The notes under the pieces were generated by a model that was not told the DNA's origin, searched no databases, and saw only the letters and a program-made list of their open reading frames with translations. The position numbers and the translations under genes were made by a program. DNA of 64,000 bases from Candidatus Didemnitutus sp. Lineage in GTDB: Bacteria > Verrucomicrobiota > Verrucomicrobiia > Opitutales > Opitutaceae. The stretch covers positions 604,410-668,409 of the forward strand of contig JAGOQJ010000001.1 of the NCBI GenBank assembly GCA_017991595.1, given 5' to 3'. This document shows, piece by piece, positions 3,140 to 41,434 of this stretch (positions are counted from its first letter, which is position 1; every line of letters begins with the position of its first letter).

Positions 3140-3955
3140 ATGTCTCACCCTTCCCAACGTCGCAAAGTCACCGTCGAGGACCTCCTCCAGCTCAAGCGAG
3201 CGGAGCGTCCGGATCAGGAATTTTGGTCGAAGTTTGAAGTCGAGCTGCGGCAGAAGCAATTGGCCGCTCTGGTCGAGCGTCGCCCGTGGTGGCAGCAACT
3301 GCCCTTGGTGCTCGGCCGCCGCGCCTATCTCCCGTTGGGCGCCACGGCTGTGATGGCGTTCACGCTCGTTTCCGTCCGTTACTATCAACCGGCCTCCTCG
3401 TTGGCGGCCGATGCCGAGCACATCGCCGCTCCTTCGGCGGCGGTGGCTGCTGCGCCCGTGGTGCCTCGTCACGACATGGAGCTGCCAGCCGATGTTGCGA
3501 GCGGGCAGGGGGCTTCCGCCTTGGCGGTCGATGACCGCACGTCCGTCGCTGCCGTCCAACTTTCCGAGCGCCTGCCTGCGCGGGCGGGCGAGCTCGTCCC
3601 GTGGAGCGCCCCGCGAATCGAAGAAACGCCCTCCGCCCGTTCCATCGCGGCCAACCTCGCACGCTTGGAGGAAAACGATCCCGAGCTCGTGAATCGGTTC
3701 CTCGCCGGCGGCTTCGGTCAGGTGATCGATGCGGTGCCCGCGGCGACCCACGCCGTCGAAGTCGCGGCGGTCGCTGCGCTCTCGTCCCGCCAGAACCGCC
3801 TCCTCGCGCAGATGGGCGAACGCCAATTCGCACCCGATCCCTCCGCCCCCGAAGTCATGCGCGAGCGTCTCTCCCGCCGGCTCGGCGACACCGAGTTGTC
3901 CGGTGGCTGGACTCGCGTCGGCCTGAAGGGCGACCGGGTGTCGTTGAAATTCTGA
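3140..3955 (+). CDS. Putative anti-sigma factor / hypothetical membrane protein co-transcribed with the ECF sigma
   Basis: Begins 9 bp after the sigma-factor stop; has one predicted TM segment (AVMAFTLVSV) and an Ala/Pro-rich periplasmic tail; no recognised catalytic motif. Confidence 0.4.
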   Translation: MSHPSQRRKVTVEDLLQLKRAERPDQEFWSKFEVELRQKQLAALVERRPWWQQLPLVLGRRAYLPLGATAVMAFTLVSVRYYQPASSLAADAEHIAAPSAAVAAAPVVPRHDMELPADVASGQGASALAVDDRTSVAAVQLSERLPARAGELVPWSAPRIEETPSARSIAANLARLEENDPELVNRFLAGGFGQVIDAVPAATHAVEVAAVAALSSRQNRLLAQMGERQFAPDPSAPEVMRERLSRRLGDTELSGGWTRVGLKGDRVSLKF

Positions 3956-35993: not shown

Positions 35994-36060
35994 GCCGCGC
36001 CGCCAGCGCTACCTTTGCCCGGCCGCCTCACGTCGAGGCGGTCTTTTTGTGTGCGGGTGC

Positions 36061-36537
36061 CTACTGTTGTTCGGCCAAGAGGCGGTGCAAACGGCGGGCG
36101 AACAGCGCAGCCGCGGTCGCGATGCCGCCGACAATCAAGGCAACGAGCGCGCTCATGAAAATCCCCGCCGGGCGGTCTTCTCCGTCGCCGCCTGCGACGA
36201 TGAAGACGACCCCGCCGGCCACGAAGCCAAGGACGATCAGCGCGCAGCGTTGGATGCTGCGCAGCGCTGCCACGGTCGCGCTTGAGAAGGAGCCACTACG
36301 CCGCACCTCGCCGAATAGCGTGAAGGCTCGTTGCAGCGCCACGAAGAAAGGGATCGAGCCGATATACACATAGGCTAGGAACGGGTCGTGGAAATAAATC
36401 GCGAAGGTCGTGGCGTGGGCGTTTCGCCCTTCCAGATGCGGTTCCCATAGCAGCAGGCCTAGCGTTGCAAGGCCCAGCAGCACGACGACAATCTGCGCGA
36501 GCAGGGCGGAGCCGCTTTTCATGCCGGGTGTTTTCAT
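36061..36537 (-). CDS. DUF2975 family membrane protein
   Basis: Four TM helices with the characteristic topology. Confidence 0.5.
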   Translation of the reverse strand: MKTPGMKSGSALLAQIVVVLLGLATLGLLLWEPHLEGRNAHATTFAIYFHDPFLAYVYIGSIPFFVALQRAFTLFGEVRRSGSFSSATVAALRSIQRCALIVLGFVAGGVVFIVAGGDGEDRPAGIFMSALVALIVGGIATAAALFARRLHRLLAEQQ

Positions 36538-36623
36538 GACGCTGAGCCTAGCCCGATTGAATGAAACGCGGATGAAGCGCCGATGCGTTCTGCGTGAAAA
36601 CCTTGCGACCGCTTCTCTGTAAT

Positions 36624-36646
36624 GGGGTCAGGCCGCTTTTCGCTGC
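36624..36646. repeat. REP element (GGGGTCAGGCCGCTTTTCGCTGC), left copy flanking the RAYT gene
   Basis: The 23-mer recurs in inverted orientation at 37611-37633 and again at 38794-38816, 39049-39071, 39172-39194. Confidence 0.8.
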
Positions 36647-37566
36647 TATTGAGCTGATTCCCGCTGGCAGAGGTAGCTACGGACGCTTGAGGCGGCGCCG
36701 AGTTGCAGGCGCTCGGCCAGCCAGACGACAGGGGCGCCGCTTTGTGCGCGCACCTTGGCCGCGAGGGTGAGTTTCCAAGGCTGTTTCATCGGCTTGGTGG
36801 CGAGATCAGCCTCCGTGCGCTTCATCTCGACCAGCTGTTCGGTCAGAGCGGCTTCCCAGCGGCTCTCCCGCAGTTCGCGCACGTTGGCCCGCTCCATCCC
36901 TGCGGTGAGCGTGAGTCGACCGAACTCCCGGGCGAGCGCTTGCCGCCAGCCAGTCGTGCCGATGGCCCAGCCACGGGAAAGATCCTTCAAGCCACGTGCC
37001 TCCCAGCCGGCCTCGTCGCCGCCGGCCGTGATCAGGTGACGCTCGTAGGCGAGACGCCCGGCGAGGTCTGCCGTAAAACGCCCGCCCGCCTGCCAACCCG
37101 CGTCATCGATCCAACTCGGGCCCTTGAGCAGGTCGGGCAAGCTGGTCCAGCGGTAGTGGCGCACCTGCTCCGGCGGCACGATCTTGGCGCGGACCGGGTT
37201 GAGGTGGATGTAGTCGACGACCCGACCGAGGGACGCCGCATCCTCGATGAGGACGGATTGATAGCGGCCTTGGAACAGGTGCCCGCGCTCCTGCCGGAAG
37301 CGGTTGAAGCGCGTGGCCCACGTGGTCTGCAACCAGTGCATGCCCTCGACGAGATTCGGCTCCGGAGTCTCGAGCGCGAGGTGGTAATGGTTGCGCATGA
37401 GAGCGTAGGCGTGGACGCGCCAGCCCATGAGGGACTGGACTTCGCGGAGCGCTGCTAGAAACGCCTGCGCCTCGGCCGGCGAGAGGAAGAGATCGCGCCG
37501 GTAATTGCCGCGGTTGATGACGTGGTAGATCGCCCCTGGGAATTGGATCCGGAGCTTGCGAGCCAT
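36646..37566 (-). CDS. REP-associated tyrosine transposase (RAYT; IS200/IS605-like Y1 HUH transposase)
   Basis: IYHVINRGN block and HUH motif HYHLAL; flanked by inverted REPs. Confidence 0.8.
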   Translation of the reverse strand: MARKLRIQFPGAIYHVINRGNYRRDLFLSPAEAQAFLAALREVQSLMGWRVHAYALMRNHYHLALETPEPNLVEGMHWLQTTWATRFNRFRQERGHLFQGRYQSVLIEDAASLGRVVDYIHLNPVRAKIVPPEQVRHYRWTSLPDLLKGPSWIDDAGWQAGGRFTADLAGRLAYERHLITAGGDEAGWEARGLKDLSRGWAIGTTGWRQALAREFGRLTLTAGMERANVRELRESRWEAALTEQLVEMKRTEADLATKPMKQPWKLTLAAKVRAQSGAPVVWLAERLQLGAASSVRSYLCQRESAQ

Positions 37567-37610
37567 GGGGCGGAGGGTGCGGGCGAATCAGTCAGGGATC
37601 GAGGTCAAAA

Positions 37611-37633
37611 GCAGCGAAAAGCGGCCTGACCCC
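37611..37633. repeat. REP element, right copy (inverted)
   Basis: Reverse complement of the 36624-36646 23-mer. Confidence 0.8.
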
Positions 37634-37664
37634 GTCGGATTGGCCCCATCGGTTTGCCCCGTGG

Positions 37665-38567
37665 TTAGGGCTTCAGCGCAAGCGTGCGGGTAGGCGTGTT
37701 GCCGTGCCCGAGAACCTCGATGCGGTCTGGGTATAGTTCGAGAATCGCATACGACGCGATGTCCGCAGTTTCCACGAGACCGCTCACGGTCAGGTAATGG
37801 ACGCCGCCGACTTCCTCGTAACCGCCCCGGTGGTTGTGCCCGTTGATATAGGCTTTGACGCAGGGGTGCTGGGCAAGAAACGAGACGATCTCCTCCGTGT
37901 TGATCGCGATGTGCGGACCGAGCGGACGGGCCGGCGTGTGGGCGAAGATTACGACCCTTTTCCCTTCGGTCTCGCTGCGCTCAAGCAGGCTTGTCAGCCA
38001 GGCGAACTGGGCCTTGTCGATGCCTCCGTTCCAGCTCTTGGCATAGCTTGCTTTCGCATCTATGGCCGCCTTCATCGCAGCCGCTGCTTCGCTTTTGAGT
38101 GGCTCTTGTTTGGGTTTGAAATAGGCGCCGAGCGTGTTGCTGTCCGCGGCGACGAAACGCCAGTTCCCTCGATCAAAGGAATAGTAGGAAGGCGATTTCA
38201 GTCCGAGCGCCTTTCGGATCTTTTCGACGTTTTCTTCGGTGTCGGCAAAGTCGTGGTTGCCCATGACATGATACTTTTTCAGCGGAAAGCGCTCGAGTTC
38301 TTTGAGAGGCGCCTGGACATTCCGGTAACCTCCGTCGACCAGATCTCCGAGATGGATCAGGAAATCTAGCGGCTCCCTCTGTGTCTCTATGCGGATCTGC
38401 TCGAGTTTTTTGATGCTGTTTCTGTAAAAGCGGGTGCCGTGCGCGTCCTTGTCCGCGTATTGGATATCCGCGATAGCCAGAATGCGAACGTCGGGGGCCG
38501 CGTGTAGCGTTAGGCTGGCGAGAAGGACGGATAGCAACGCCATGATCCTGAGGGGGCCGTTTGTCAT
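37665..38567 (-). CDS. Secreted metallophosphoesterase (calcineurin-like phosphoesterase)
   Basis: Signal peptide MALLSVLLASLTLHA; metallophosphatase motifs GDLVDGG, GNHD and GHNH; GC noticeably lower than surroundings. Confidence 0.7.
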   Translation of the reverse strand: MTNGPLRIMALLSVLLASLTLHAAPDVRILAIADIQYADKDAHGTRFYRNSIKKLEQIRIETQREPLDFLIHLGDLVDGGYRNVQAPLKELERFPLKKYHVMGNHDFADTEENVEKIRKALGLKSPSYYSFDRGNWRFVAADSNTLGAYFKPKQEPLKSEAAAAMKAAIDAKASYAKSWNGGIDKAQFAWLTSLLERSETEGKRVVIFAHTPARPLGPHIAINTEEIVSFLAQHPCVKAYINGHNHRGGYEEVGGVHYLTVSGLVETADIASYAILELYPDRIEVLGHGNTPTRTLALKP

Positions 38568-38793
38568 GGATAATATGAGGGTAGCTTTAAAGGAGCCTCC
38601 CCCGTCTCCCCTATGCAAATCAAGGTAGGGTCAATTGTTGACTGTCGCTTCTTTCGGTGGGCATGACGAACGCGGACTTCTGCGTCCGGCCTCATCCGGC
38701 CGGTGTCTGAAAAGTATGTTTTTCGACGAGCGAGCGCTCGCTGTTTATAGGGATGAAATTAACTCAGGACCACCCATTGACCGTCCACAGTAT

Positions 38794-39206
38794 GGGGTCA
38801 GGCCGCTTTTCGCTTTTAGCGAGCTGGCTCTCCCTGGCAGAGGTAGGCGTGGATACGCCAGTCCATGAGGGACTGGGTTTCGCGGGCTGCCGCGAGAAAC
38901 GCCTACGCCTCGGCCGGGGAGAGGAAGAGATCGCGCCGGTAATTACCGCGGTTGATGACGTGGTAGATCGCCCCTGGGAATTGGATCCGGAGCTTGCGAG
39001 CCATGCGGCGGAGGGTGCGGGCGAATCAGTCAGGGATCGAGGTCAAAAGCAGCGAAAAGCGGCCTGACCCCGTCGGATTGGCCGTGGTAGATCGCCCCTG
39101 GGAATTGGATCCGGAGCTTGCGAGCCATGGGGCGGAGGGTGCGGGCGAATCAGTCAGGGATCGAGGTCAAAAGCAGCGAAAAGCGGCCTGACCCCGTCGG
39201 ATTGGC
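38794..39206. mobile_element. Internally deleted RAYT/REP derivative (MITE-like) with tandem duplication of its 123-bp terminal unit
   Basis: 38794-38850 matches the RAYT 3' end/REP (36624-36680); 38850-39083 matches the RAYT 5' end (37405-37645, including the ATG and about 55 N-terminal codons); the unit GTGGTAGATCGCCCCTGGG...GATTGGC is then repeated at 39084-39206. Confidence 0.75.
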
Positions 39207-39519
39207 GTGCAGCTAGCAGCAGGCCGAGGAACGCGCTGAACGTGCGGGTGACCGGACGAGAGCGCGATACCACCGCCAGGCAAACGGTGAGCGCGAGCGT
39301 GCCGAAGGCGCTGACGACCAGACCGAGCGCGGAGAAGATCAGGAAGGAGGCGAGGGCGTTCCCGCCCGGCATGTTCAGCGCGAACAGCGCACTCGCGACC
39401 AACGGCACCGGCAACGGCGAAAGCAGAAGCGCTTTCCAGGAGAAGCCGAAACGCGGCGGCGAGTCAGGCATTGCGGCGAGGAGTGTGCAGGGCCGGAATC
39501 GGCTCACAAGCGCGGTCAC
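39154..39519 (-). pseudogene. Truncated membrane-protein ORF whose last 17 codons come from the repeat unit
   Basis: Three predicted TM helices; the reading frame runs into the tandem repeat (..AARQSDGVRPLFAAFDLDP*), consistent with disruption or fusion by the repeat insertion. Confidence 0.3.
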
Positions 39520-39684
39520 GGCGCCGTTTTGTAGCGCGATCAGCCGGCGCGCGGGATTCTCGCGCGCGTTTGCGGCACGGTTCTCGAGGAAAGACTGCGG
39601 GTCGGAGAGTGGGGCCGTTGCGCGTTGCCTTGCAGCGGCGTCCGGTGGCGAGACAGTAGGCCTCAGCGTCCGCAGAAAATTGCC

Positions 39685-39987
39685 TCAAGAATCCGGCCAT
39701 TGTGCCGACGCACGAACGATACCCTCGATGCAAGCCTGGCTCCGCCTTCTTCCAATACTGTTGGCTTTTCCGCTCACGGTCTGTGCGCAACTGACCGTCA
39801 TCCAGACGATGCGGTTCGACGACTCGGGTGCTCCCTGGGCGACCTCCGGCGGGATCGTCGTGGCGTCGAGCGACGGTGAGCCGACGTTGCAAGATGCCGT
39901 GCTTGCCCCGATCGCGGGCAATGTGTTTTCGGCGCACTTCACTCCGAAACCGAGAGCGAGGACAACAAGGCGGATCAATTTCATCAC
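39685..39987 (-). CDS. Small secreted hypothetical protein (ambiguous; a signal-peptide ORF also exists on the + strand from 39728)
   Basis: MMKLIRLVVLALGFGVKCA signal peptide; lower-GC patch; the opposite-strand ORF MQAWLRLLPILLAFPLTVCAQ... also looks plausible, so strand is unresolved. Confidence 0.25.
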   Translation of the reverse strand: MMKLIRLVVLALGFGVKCAENTLPAIGASTASCNVGSPSLDATTIPPEVAQGAPESSNRIVWMTVSCAQTVSGKANSIGRRRSQACIEGIVRASAQWPDS

Positions 39988-40159
39988 GAAAAAGGGCCAA
40001 GGCGATGAATTCGCCGTTGGCCCAGTGAAACGAGATGCAAACTACCGCCCGCTGGCAAGCATGCGCTGGTGCCGCGTGCCCTCTCTGTCAGGAATCACGA
40101 CCCCACATCCTCGGGTCCGGCCTGCGGTGTTCGGCTCGGCTCGATTGATCACGTGGCAA

Positions 40160-40210
40160 ATAAGCGAGCGTCGAAACAGCGAACAACGGCCTGGCCCCGT
40201 CGGCTCAGAC
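40160..40210. repeat. Degenerate REP/terminal-unit remnant
   Basis: AGCGtcGAAAcAGCGaaCAaCGGCCTGgCCCCGTCGG resembles AGCAGCGAAAAGCGGCCTGACCCCGTCGG; lies immediately 3' of the methyltransferase gene. Confidence 0.45.
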
Positions 40211-40216
40211 GCCGGA

Positions 40217-41434
40217 TCATTTCTGAAAAATCACGATGCGATTGCTGTTGGTGCCCTTCGAGTTGTTGTCCACGCCCCAGCAATTCGCAGTCTTCGTGAA
40301 TTCCTGGGAGTTGATCAAAATCGACACGGGGATAAGCCCCGCGGCGCGTCCGGCGGCGAGCACTTGCTCCTCCAAGCGCACTGTGCCGCTGCGAACCTCT
40401 CCGACTTCGAACGCGACAAATCCACCCGGGCACACCACGCGGTGCAGTTCACGGAGCACGCTCCGCATGGCCGCAGTCCATTCGGGCAGCTTGCGGAGTT
40501 GCCAGATCGGCACGCGCTCCAAATCGATGCCGCAAAACCACGCGCGGAGCCAGTTGTCCTGGGCGTAGTCCACGGTATCGAGGAAAGGTGGGGAGGTGAC
40601 CGCGAGTGCGACCGAACTATCGTCGAGCTGTGGTGTAGTTTCGCAGGTTTGGGTCAACAGGATGGGAGCGGTCGTAAGCTGAGGCCGCGCTGGGTCGGCT
40701 AGAAGTTGTTTCGTTTTCTTGAGAATCAGTGCGGGCACGTCGCGGCAGGCCGGGGCCTGTTTCCGCTTCTCATTGATGCGGCGTTGTGACTCGATCGACA
40801 CCGCTTGGTTGGGCGGGAGTGTGTAGACGGAAAAGAAGCCGGCGGAGTGGCCGGTCAGGCGGTTGGCAGCGACGAGGCGAATCCACGCGTCGACGGCATC
40901 CTCCGTTCCGGTGCGCCGGGCTTGCAGGAGATAGCGGCGTAGCGAGCATAGCTGCCGCAAGGTCTCGCGATGATAGAAAACGTCCAAGTCCTCGCGGAGT
41001 TCGCGCACCGCCGTGAAATCGATAATTTCCAACCGCCGCTGCACCTGTGCGAACGAAGGCGGAGCGAGTCGCGGCGCAGTGAAGACTTCGGAAAGCGGAT
41101 TGATGTCACAGCCGGCGACCTCACGGCCGAGCAATGCCGCTTCGACGAGAGTAGTGCCACGCCCCATGAACGGGTCGTAAACGAGATCGCCCGGTGCGGT
41201 GAGGCGCTCGATGAAGAAGCGGGGCAACTGAGGTTTGAAGCAGGCGCGGTAGGAGACCTCGTGGAGCGAGTGCGCGGCGCGTTGTTTGGAGGTCCAGAAT
41301 TCGTTGGTGAAGACGGGCACGCCGTCCAGTTCGCTGCAGCGGGTGCTCTCGCCGAAGTCAGAGAAGGAGGCCAGTTCCGACAAAAGCTCGCTGGTTGCAT
41401 CCTGCCGAACTGTTCTATGCGGAAGTGCGTTCAA
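40217..41434 (-). CDS. Type II DNA methyltransferase (amino-MTase; AdoMet motif DPFMGRGTT, catalytic motif SPPF; possibly N4-cytosine-specific)
   Basis: DLVYDPFMGRGTTLVEA (motif I) and TSPPF (motif IV); 405 aa; about 55% GC. Confidence 0.8.
   Translation of the reverse strand: MNALPHRTVRQDATSELLSELASFSDFGESTRCSELDGVPVFTNEFWTSKQRAAHSLHEVSYRACFKPQLPRFFIERLTAPGDLVYDPFMGRGTTLVEAALLGREVAGCDINPLSEVFTAPRLAPPSFAQVQRRLEIIDFTAVRELREDLDVFYHRETLRQLCSLRRYLLQARRTGTEDAVDAWIRLVAANRLTGHSAGFFSVYTLPPNQAVSIESQRRINEKRKQAPACRDVPALILKKTKQLLADPARPQLTTAPILLTQTCETTPQLDDSSVALAVTSPPFLDTVDYAQDNWLRAWFCGIDLERVPIWQLRKLPEWTAAMRSVLRELHRVVCPGGFVAFEVGEVRSGTVRLEEQVLAAGRAAGLIPVSILINSQEFTKTANCWGVDNNSKGTNSNRIVIFQK

Follow-up and report, generated by a model that had tools for sequence, protein, structure and literature searches.

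A TIRtron-type transposase element and its mosaic, end-duplicated deletion derivative in Candidatus Didemnitutus

How does a short piece of a Candidatus Didemnitutus genome come to carry both ends of a nearby transposase gene and, directly beside them, one of these ends a second time? The piece lies at 38792-39206 of the window, by which we mean the whole stretch of 64,000 nucleotides (64 kb) that was analysed. A BLAST comparison of the full transposase element at 36622-37645 (the master) with the window, including the region 38780-39210, gave three matches: 36622-36676 with 38792-38846 (85.5% identity), 37400-37645 with 38839-39083 (94.3%) and 37521-37644 with 39083-39206 (100% over 124 nt, E 4e-62). 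The left 55 nt of the master are thus found again at 38792-38846 and its right 241 nt at 38843-39083, and Tandem Repeats Finder (TRF) reports a tandem repeat at 38959-39206 with a period of 124, 2.0 copies, 99% matches, no indels and a score of 489. The collage and the head-to-tail repeat at 38792-39206 are real and far above chance. The original prediction had described an internally deleted derivative of the adjacent transposase element (the mini) followed by a head-to-tail terminal unit, and TRF, the repeat finder and BLAST all bear this out; its statement that the array is not a CRISPR also stands.

The master is encoded on the minus strand and contains one intact open reading frame (ORF) of 306 amino acids at 36646-37566. 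Its ORF-distal end, RE, carries a terminal inverted repeat (TIR) at 36624-36662, and its promoter-side end, LE, carries the opposing TIR at 37595-37633 followed by a 12-nt outer segment at 37634-37645 (GGCCAATCCGAC on the minus strand). The two arms are 39 nt long, 87% complementary and begin GGGGTCAGGCCG. The protein matches the Pfam model Y1_Tnp with 44.4 bits (E 2e-11), over the 23-bit cut-off, and in an alignment of 43 homologues H60 and H62 of the HUH motif and Y102 are invariant. The C-terminal 165 amino acids are also strongly conserved among these homologues and are helical in the AlphaFold prediction; they have no Pfam match even at an E-value of 10. When the AF2 model (pLDDT 79.9) was compared with the PDB by Foldseek, the top match was 4ER8_A, the E. 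coli RAYT-REP complex (E 1.9e-6), with the ISDra2 and IS608 transposases behind it, and a phmmer search of the PDB returned no match. Among NCBIfam models the protein is closest by far to NF047646 (REP_Tyr_transpos), at 69.6 bits against a cut-off of 80. The IS200 model NF033573 gives 16.9 bits against a cut-off of 55, so that the protein falls outside the IS200/IS605 TnpA transposases. Homologues are annotated as RayT by JGI.

These data show that the protein is a Y1 HUH tyrosine transposase of RAYT-like type and that the locus is a TIRtron, encoding a TIRYT, rather than a RAYT with GTAG-tagged REPs. The class assignment follows from the 39-nt TIRs, whose start, GGGGTCAG, fits the motif GGGGWSAS. 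A TIRtron is a gene encoding a TIRYT together with its terminal inverted repeats (Di Nocera et al., 2013, PMC3733652), and this motif is given for many, not all, published TIRtrons (PMC3733652; PMC6006769). TIRYTs mostly correspond to subclass 2.1 of Quentin et al., 2018 (PMC6006769), which is characterised by a C-terminal helix-turn-helix resembling DnaA domain IV. The gene in the window is not flanked by GTAG-tagged REPs, its flanks being TIRs of the type just described, and it is therefore no RAYT in the strict sense. The earlier label 'RAYT' was right as to fold and kinship (4ER8, JGI RayT) and went too far with respect to the GTAG-REP definition and the NCBIfam cut-off. GTAG motifs do occur near both breakpoints, and we considered and rejected them as RAYT recognition sites: the ends are of GGGGWSAS type, and the GTAG at the deletion junction is internal coding microhomology.

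The likeness to published TIRtrons extends beyond the motif. The protein is RAYT-like, exceeds classical RAYTs in length and has a conserved C-terminal extension. Long inverted repeats stand on both sides of the gene at fixed distances, and in related MAGs further copies of these repeats occur in moderate numbers as singles, dimers and groups. The host is a point of difference, as neither Opitutaceae nor 'Ca. Didemnitutus' is mentioned in the available parts of PMC3733652 and PMC6006769; a deletion derivative with coding remnants, concerted evolution with a master copy and a 124-bp tandem unit of LE were likewise not found in those parts. With REPtrons (Nunvar 2010; Bertels & Rainey 2011, PMC3116915; 4ER8) the locus shares the top structural match, the HUH and Tyr motifs, a gene between inverted copies of a short repeat that related genomes carry in dispersed form, inverted pairs that resemble REPINs, and a syntenic gene position (L036, L038, L011; loci of relatives are given L numbers), as for vertical inheritance. 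It differs from them in lacking a GTAG-tagged palindrome, in scoring below the NCBIfam RAYT cut-off and in its 39-nt TIR arms. Furthermore, two paralogues can sit 2 kb apart (L038).

In every homologue locus examined (L035, L036, L038 twice, L044, L046 and L055) the gene lies between inverted GGGGTCAGGCCG arms, one about 60 nt upstream of the ATG and the other overlapping the stop codon. The arms of one gene are identical over 26-32 nt, and each paralogue has its own arm variant. There is one intact transposase copy in the window, with no second in the 64 kb by BLAST, and its RE-side neighbourhood is syntenic with L036, L038 and L011; homologues also occur in unrelated contexts (L044, L046). 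Plasmids yielded relatives below 40% identity only, and a metagenome scan with the transposase gave three loci, none of a close strain. At L038 (2900-6950; also L039), two paralogous TIRYT genes of 76% nucleotide identity are oriented alike at a distance of 2 kb from each other, and the arms of each gene are a perfectly matched variant of its own. A Na/Ca-exchanger gene and a 149-aa ORF are found between them, with an IS21 element just upstream, and the downstream copy is syntenic with the gene in the window.

The mini has the same orientation as the master and lies about 1.15 kb from it. Its RE-derived part (38792-38846, 55 nt, minus strand) is 85% identical to 36622-36676 of the master. This part is joined to region A (38843-38958, minus strand), a remnant of transposase codons 16-54, at a GTAG/AGAG microhomology that marks the deletion junction. 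Contiguous with region A is the first tandem copy, B1 (38959-39082, minus strand), with codons 1-15, the 5' leader, the LE TIR and the LE terminus, and beyond it lies the extra head-to-tail unit, B2 (39083-39206, minus strand). B1 and B2 differ at a single base, 39006, which is C in B1 and G at the corresponding position 39130 and in the master. B2 stops exactly where homology to the master stops (GATTGGC | GTGCAGC), and the junction between the two units reads GATTGGC-C-GTGGTAG, within GATTGGCCGTGGTAGATCG. We also considered a tandem duplication of period 1562 and rejected it, the sequence past B2 being unlike that past the corresponding block of the master.

Three figures of the original prediction change with this map. 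The repeated unit, given as 123 bp at 39084-39206, has a period of 124, with a C at 39083 that can be assigned to either copy. The deletion, put at about 725 bp, amounts to 732 bp (a master of 1024 bp against a single-unit mini of 292 bp); its junction is the microhomology CAGAG-GTAG / GAGAGCGTAG, in the sequence CTGGCAGAGGTAGGCGTGGATACG. Finally, of the ATG plus about 55 codons said to be kept, some 54 N-terminal codons are indeed kept in frame, yet a stop at codon 34 (CAG>TAG) limits what can be encoded to at most 33 amino acids. The ATG of the extra unit opens a frame of 32 codons that ends at a stop inside copy 1, and the extra 124-nt unit has no evident function.

The mini begins at about 38792-38794 and has perfect inverted arms of 21 nt, 38794-38814 pairing with 39051-39071 and, through the extra unit, with 39175-39195. 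At 292 bp (38792-39083), with two inverted parental terminal repeats and no transposase, it has the make-up and falls in the size range (100-400 bp) of MITE- or REPIN-like elements. We found no second copy of the collage in the window or in 57 related loci, and no direct repeat flanking the mini that would represent a target-site duplication. With one known copy, no target-site duplication and no sign of another insertion site, any mobility of the mini would be hypothetical. RAYT-like genes are usually regarded as not self-mobilising. These features show a non-autonomous derivative of the adjacent TIRtron that was born by a 732-bp deletion between short direct repeats and has since decayed as a pseudogene, retaining perfect terminal repeats of 21-23 nt.

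Like MITE-type derivatives of insertion sequences, including those derived from IS200/IS605, the mini consists of both ends of an autonomous element after internal deletion, with the terminal repeats kept; it differs from them in its single known copy, in having no target-site duplication and in showing no sign of movement. REPINs are about 100 nt long and carry no coding remnants, whereas the mini is 292 nt long and visibly a deleted gene. The head-to-tail and alternating clusters of transposase-recognised repeats that are found in this repeat family (a 199-nt unit in 2.6 copies at L030; same-strand doublets) recall BIME/REP clusters and tandem REPIN arrays, with the difference that the 124-nt block of the window includes the leader and coding sequence of a transposase gene.

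The arms belong to a wider repeat family. With three mismatches allowed, the 21-mer GGGGTCAGGCCGCTTTTCGCT occurs six times in the window, against 0.01 copies expected, and all six lie within 3.6 kb (36624-40198). One of them is a solo TIR of LE type at 40165-40203 (minus strand), GAGCCGAC-GGGGCCAGGCCGTTGTTCGCTG, also found by BLAST at 85% over 40 nt. It follows directly on the stop codon of a gene for an N6/N4 DNA methylase (40217-41434) and is oriented like the other LE copies, and a closely similar solo copy exists in another Ca. Didemnitutus MAG (L020, 817). Just outside the LE of the master, at 37646-37661 (minus strand), alignment and TRF (period 14 at 37630-37660) reveal a degenerate partial repeat of the LE start, GGGGCAAACCGAT / GGGGCCAATCCGAC / GGGGTCAGGCCGCT. 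On the minus strand, 37620-37661 reads as three successive units of 13-14 nt, each with a GGGG start, and has the look of a partial re-copying of the outer LE edge; comparable stacks of truncated repeat starts are seen at L004, L012, L024 and L028.

In a scan of one genome per species, with three degenerate positions allowed, the 21-mer was present in 35 stretches, mostly from five Opitutaceae or Verrucomicrobiota MAGs. Exact copies number at least 25 in CAYWTK01 and at least 14 in JBMTAG01, on many contigs. The repeat is found singly, in inverted pairs separated by 110-275 nt, in doublets on one strand with a spacing of 37-61 nt, in stacks of truncated starts, and in a 199-nt unit present 2.6 times. 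The inverted pairs of other MAGs have only a core of 21-27 nt in common with the window element and carry none of its coding remnants, which makes the mini unusual in still displaying its origin. The 199-nt array (L030, 2797-3308) is built of inverted pairs and its copies are 96% identical. At L005, L008, L014, L030, L032 and L033 the repeat mostly follows GTAAAAA, in arrays or in same-strand doublets 37-42 nt apart. An Acidobacteriaceae contig (L006) carries an exact 23-mer of the window type, and repeat-bearing sequence is identical in a 'Sulfuritalea' MAG and a Verrucomicrobiota MAG (L002 and L013), which may be a binning error.

To date the parts of the mini we compared it, in one alignment, with the master, the extra unit and the orthologue from a related strain (L036), whose element is 93.5% identical to the master in a backbone of about 90%. 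Region A of the mini has 12 differences from the master in 116 positions; at four of these sites it agrees with L036 against the master, which marks this region as old and decaying. Region B behaves differently. Here 8 of 117 positions distinguish the master from L036, which speaks against any unusual constraint on the region, and copy 1 of the mini has all eight master states along with one private change. The difference between the two regions in their divergence from the master (12/116 in A, 1/125 in B) is significant (Fisher p 0.001). The tract of high identity, 38946-39083, starts somewhere between 38946 and 38959 and hence no more than 13 nt from the duplication boundary. A similar pattern is present at the RE end, where the outermost 23 nt equal those of the master and the next 32 nt carry eight changes (Fisher p 0.015).

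Judged by its sequence, the mini is old, with an inner part about 10% diverged and a stop at codon 34. The simplest reading of the identity pattern would be that its terminal repeats have been kept matched to the master and that some 138 nt on the LE side were recently copied from it. The extra unit, 100% identical to the master, is recent as well. The 'recent activity at this element' put forward originally therefore applies to the outer 138 nt or so and to the extra unit, and not to the mini itself.

The spacer between the LE of the master and the RE of the mini (37646-38791, minus strand) contains a metallophosphoesterase gene (37665-38567; Pfam Metallophos) and about 215 nt of its upstream region. 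This block has homologues elsewhere. The part at 37661-38682 recurs with 96% identity in L048-L053, which come from five assemblies of a related strain, where it lies between genes for a DUF5069 protein and RNase R with no transposase nearby, and 37657-38781 is 85% identical to L054, a third context that is also free of transposases. Homology to these relatives reaches 4 nt past the stop codon and, on the opposite side, to within 10 nt of the end of the mini. The identity of the block to L048 (96%) is higher than that of the syntenic backbone to L036 (about 90%). On the other side of the master, between its RE and an EF-hand gene, lies a block of 605 bp (36016-36620) with a gene for a DUF2975 membrane protein that is absent from L036 and L037, in which the RE is 5 nt from the 3' end of the EF-hand gene. 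Both ends of the element are thus break-points of differences in gene content.

Further features were noted around the locus. An orphan ORF at 39154-39519 (minus strand; hypothetical protein KBC32_02630, GC3 0.80) ends within the extra tandem unit, which supplies its last 17 codons and its stop, and among 5.8 billion proteins it has no homologue but itself. The segment 42109-44118, part of a gene for 1105 amino acids, is 91.6% identical in DNA and 95.5% in protein to L033 (3345-5393), where the other syntenic segments reach only about 77%; in both the window and L033, variable genes and then repeat copies follow downstream of this gene. A 15-nt match between 36448-36462 and 39214-39228 was considered as a trace of a split gene and rejected, there being no further similarity.

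What, then, produced the second unit? On the sense strand all three LE copies begin 5'-GCCAATCCGAC-GGGGTCAGG. They are preceded by ...GCTGCAC at the outer flank (GCTGCAC-GCCAATCCGACGGGGTCAGG...TTTTGACCTCG), by ...ATCTACCACG at the end of the extra unit, and by ...CTAACCAC plus the 16-nt degenerate LE start in the master. The internal candidate site is CTACCAC|G, contained in GGCGATCTACCACGTCATC. The duplicated block ends within 1 nt of the limit of homology to the master, which we take as the LE terminus; we know of no cleavage site for any TIRYT, and this 'terminus' is accordingly defined by homology limits only. The bases CAC stand before all three LE copies in the window (39207-39211, GCAC; 39083-39087, CCAC(G); 37662-37666, CCAC, followed by the 16-nt degenerate LE start), with the phosphoesterase block ending ...CTAACCAC and the tandem unit ...CTACCAC, and this pattern is absent from LE copies at other loci.

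A comparable duplication exists at L057 (3167-3790), upstream of a homologue of 66% identity. There the LE is duplicated (3187-3285 and 3350-3450) with 93% identity over about 100 nt and a period of 163, and the copies are joined at GCCAAGCC. A 65-nt piece of the 3' coding region of the transposase lies between these copies, and a 21-nt tandem array of about seven copies (3477-3627) lies between the LE and the ATG.

Since the junction falls exactly on the element terminus, our reading of the sequence leans towards an event initiated by the transposase rather than plain slippage at 39083. An end-specific event is further supported by the lack of in-register microhomology at the window junction, by the terminus (GCCAAG/TCC...) being the same as the junction in the independent LE duplication of L057, and by the recurrence of doublets, stacked truncated starts, tandem arrays and partial outer-TIR repeats in other Opitutaceae MAGs. 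In seven of eight LE sequences the first 7-9 nt can pair with a downstream complement resembling TGACYC, which is not so for RE sequences, although single cases are not significant; by analogy this suggests that a hairpin may be recognised on one strand, as in IS200/IS605 and RAYT systems. The internal breakpoint GTGGTAGATCGC resembles the true end GGGGTCAGGCCGC weakly (p ~0.015 for a 13-mer chosen post hoc, 0.08 for a 16-mer), and, overall, neither the ends nor the unit fold better as single strands than shuffled sequences do, with only the short LE stem recurring.

The course of events that we propose starts from the old deletion derivative. The outer ~138 nt of the mini, comprising the LE end, the leader and about the first 20 codons, would have been overwritten from the master by gene conversion. 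The transposase would then have nicked the sense strand at the LE terminus, 5'-GCCAATCCGAC-GGGGTCAGG, and the LE end would have been joined to the 3' end after ...ATCTACCACG in the 5' coding region. This could have come about by excision of a 124-nt single-stranded circle running from LE to the pseudo-end and its reinsertion at the LE boundary, or by re-copying primed from the nick; either route would leave a second LE unit head-to-tail. One point change, at 39006, would have followed. The conversion and the duplication may have happened together or as two separate events. We give this account as a whole (a TIRtron and an old deletion derivative, whose end was overwritten from the master and whose LE was duplicated via a transposase nick) an even chance of being correct.

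The duplication might instead have arisen independently of the transposase, by slippage or template switching in which a nascent strand stalls at the LE hairpin region and re-anneals about 124 nt back, the coincidence with the terminus being due to chance or local sequence. A CGTG/CACG microhomology of 4 nt at both boundaries, although one base out of register, and the 6-nt microhomology GCCAAG at the junction of the independent L057 duplication are both of the kind that template switching leaves, and they weaken the transposase account; the internal deletion of the mini was clearly mediated by microhomology, and a potential LE hairpin lies inside the unit. However, microhomology is absent in register, with mismatched flanking bases on either side and exactly 2.0 copies by TRF; the fold energies of the ends are no better than those of shuffles, and a boundary within 1 nt of the element terminus would be a coincidence of some 1-2%. 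We consider slippage possible but doubtful. A mis-assembled loop as the origin of the second unit is very improbable. The sequence does come from a metagenome-assembled genome, and the 124-nt block is present three times within 1.7 kb, once in the master at a distance of 1.4 kb, yet the GATTGGC-C-GTGGTAG junction is novel and an assembly graph needs spanning reads to make such a sequence; the copies also differ by one base, the contig is 940 kb long, and an unrelated assembly (L057) contains an analogous LE duplication.

Two further scenarios draw the phosphoesterase gene into the event. An unlikely one, which builds on both ends of the element being break-points of gene content, is that these ends are active joining sites and that the transposase used its LE terminus together with internal or foreign pseudo-sites ending ...CAC for LE-to-X joints, which would have made the 124-nt unit and also placed the phosphoesterase gene between master and mini. 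In the other, quite unlikely in our view, a segment of 1562 nt (the LE of the mini, the mini, the phosphoesterase cassette and the next LE up to ...CTACCAC) was mobilised at another locus and inserted in one step at the identical ...CTACCAC| site of a resident transposase gene and brought in the extra unit along with the phosphoesterase. B2 and the corresponding block of the master are 100% identical and 1562 nt apart, two relatives have the cassette in other contexts whereas synteny with L036, L038 and L011 holds on the RE side of the master, and ...CAC precedes all three LE copies of the window, at the end of both cassette (CTAACCAC) and unit (...CTACCAC), all as such a nested insertion would leave them. 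Against this, the CAC pattern is missing at the LE copies of other loci, a donor locus with an identical B sequence is required although neither a donor nor an empty site is on hand, and more assumptions are needed than for a local duplication. Least probable of all, and very remote, is that the tandem units are functional, as duplicated promoter and leader modules for outward transcription, a small RNA or a peptide. Each does contain the ATG and the region upstream of it, but the original suggestion that each carries a promoter found no support, as a scan for sigma-70-like promoters, a weak test for Verrucomicrobiota, found none in the units; nor is there an Rfam match at 36000-40500 (E-value mode). 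The frames they open are 32-33 codons long and end in element sequence, the arrangement is not conserved in relatives, and the inner part of the mini is decaying.

A proposed transposase-initiated duplication at the end of an old deletion derivative bears on how repeats of this kind form. That REP- and REPIN-like repeats originate from the flanks of tyrosine-transposase genes is an idea reportedly set out by Bertels and Rainey in 2011 and said still to be a hypothesis. The locus offers a natural intermediate: a two-ended, gene-less derivative that still displays the deleted parent gene, whose very ends are kept like those of the master and which carries a fresh end-specific rearrangement. Whether repeats still form de novo was asked by Di Nocera et al., 2013 (PMC3733652). 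The LE terminus GCCAATCCGAC-GGGGTCAGG and the internal CTACCAC|G provide concrete candidate sequences for where a TIRYT cuts and joins. To our knowledge, these sites have never been determined biochemically. Furthermore, if LE-to-X joining were true, RAYT-like 'domesticated' transposases could pick up host genes and move them to new places as composite units of single-stranded DNA, and we know of no description of this for the RAYT-like family. The locus is a TIRtron/RAYT-like element with a MITE-like deletion derivative and leaves the overall picture of such elements unchanged; the useful details that it adds are the mosaic age of the derivative, the end-specific duplication and the possible link to gene relocation.
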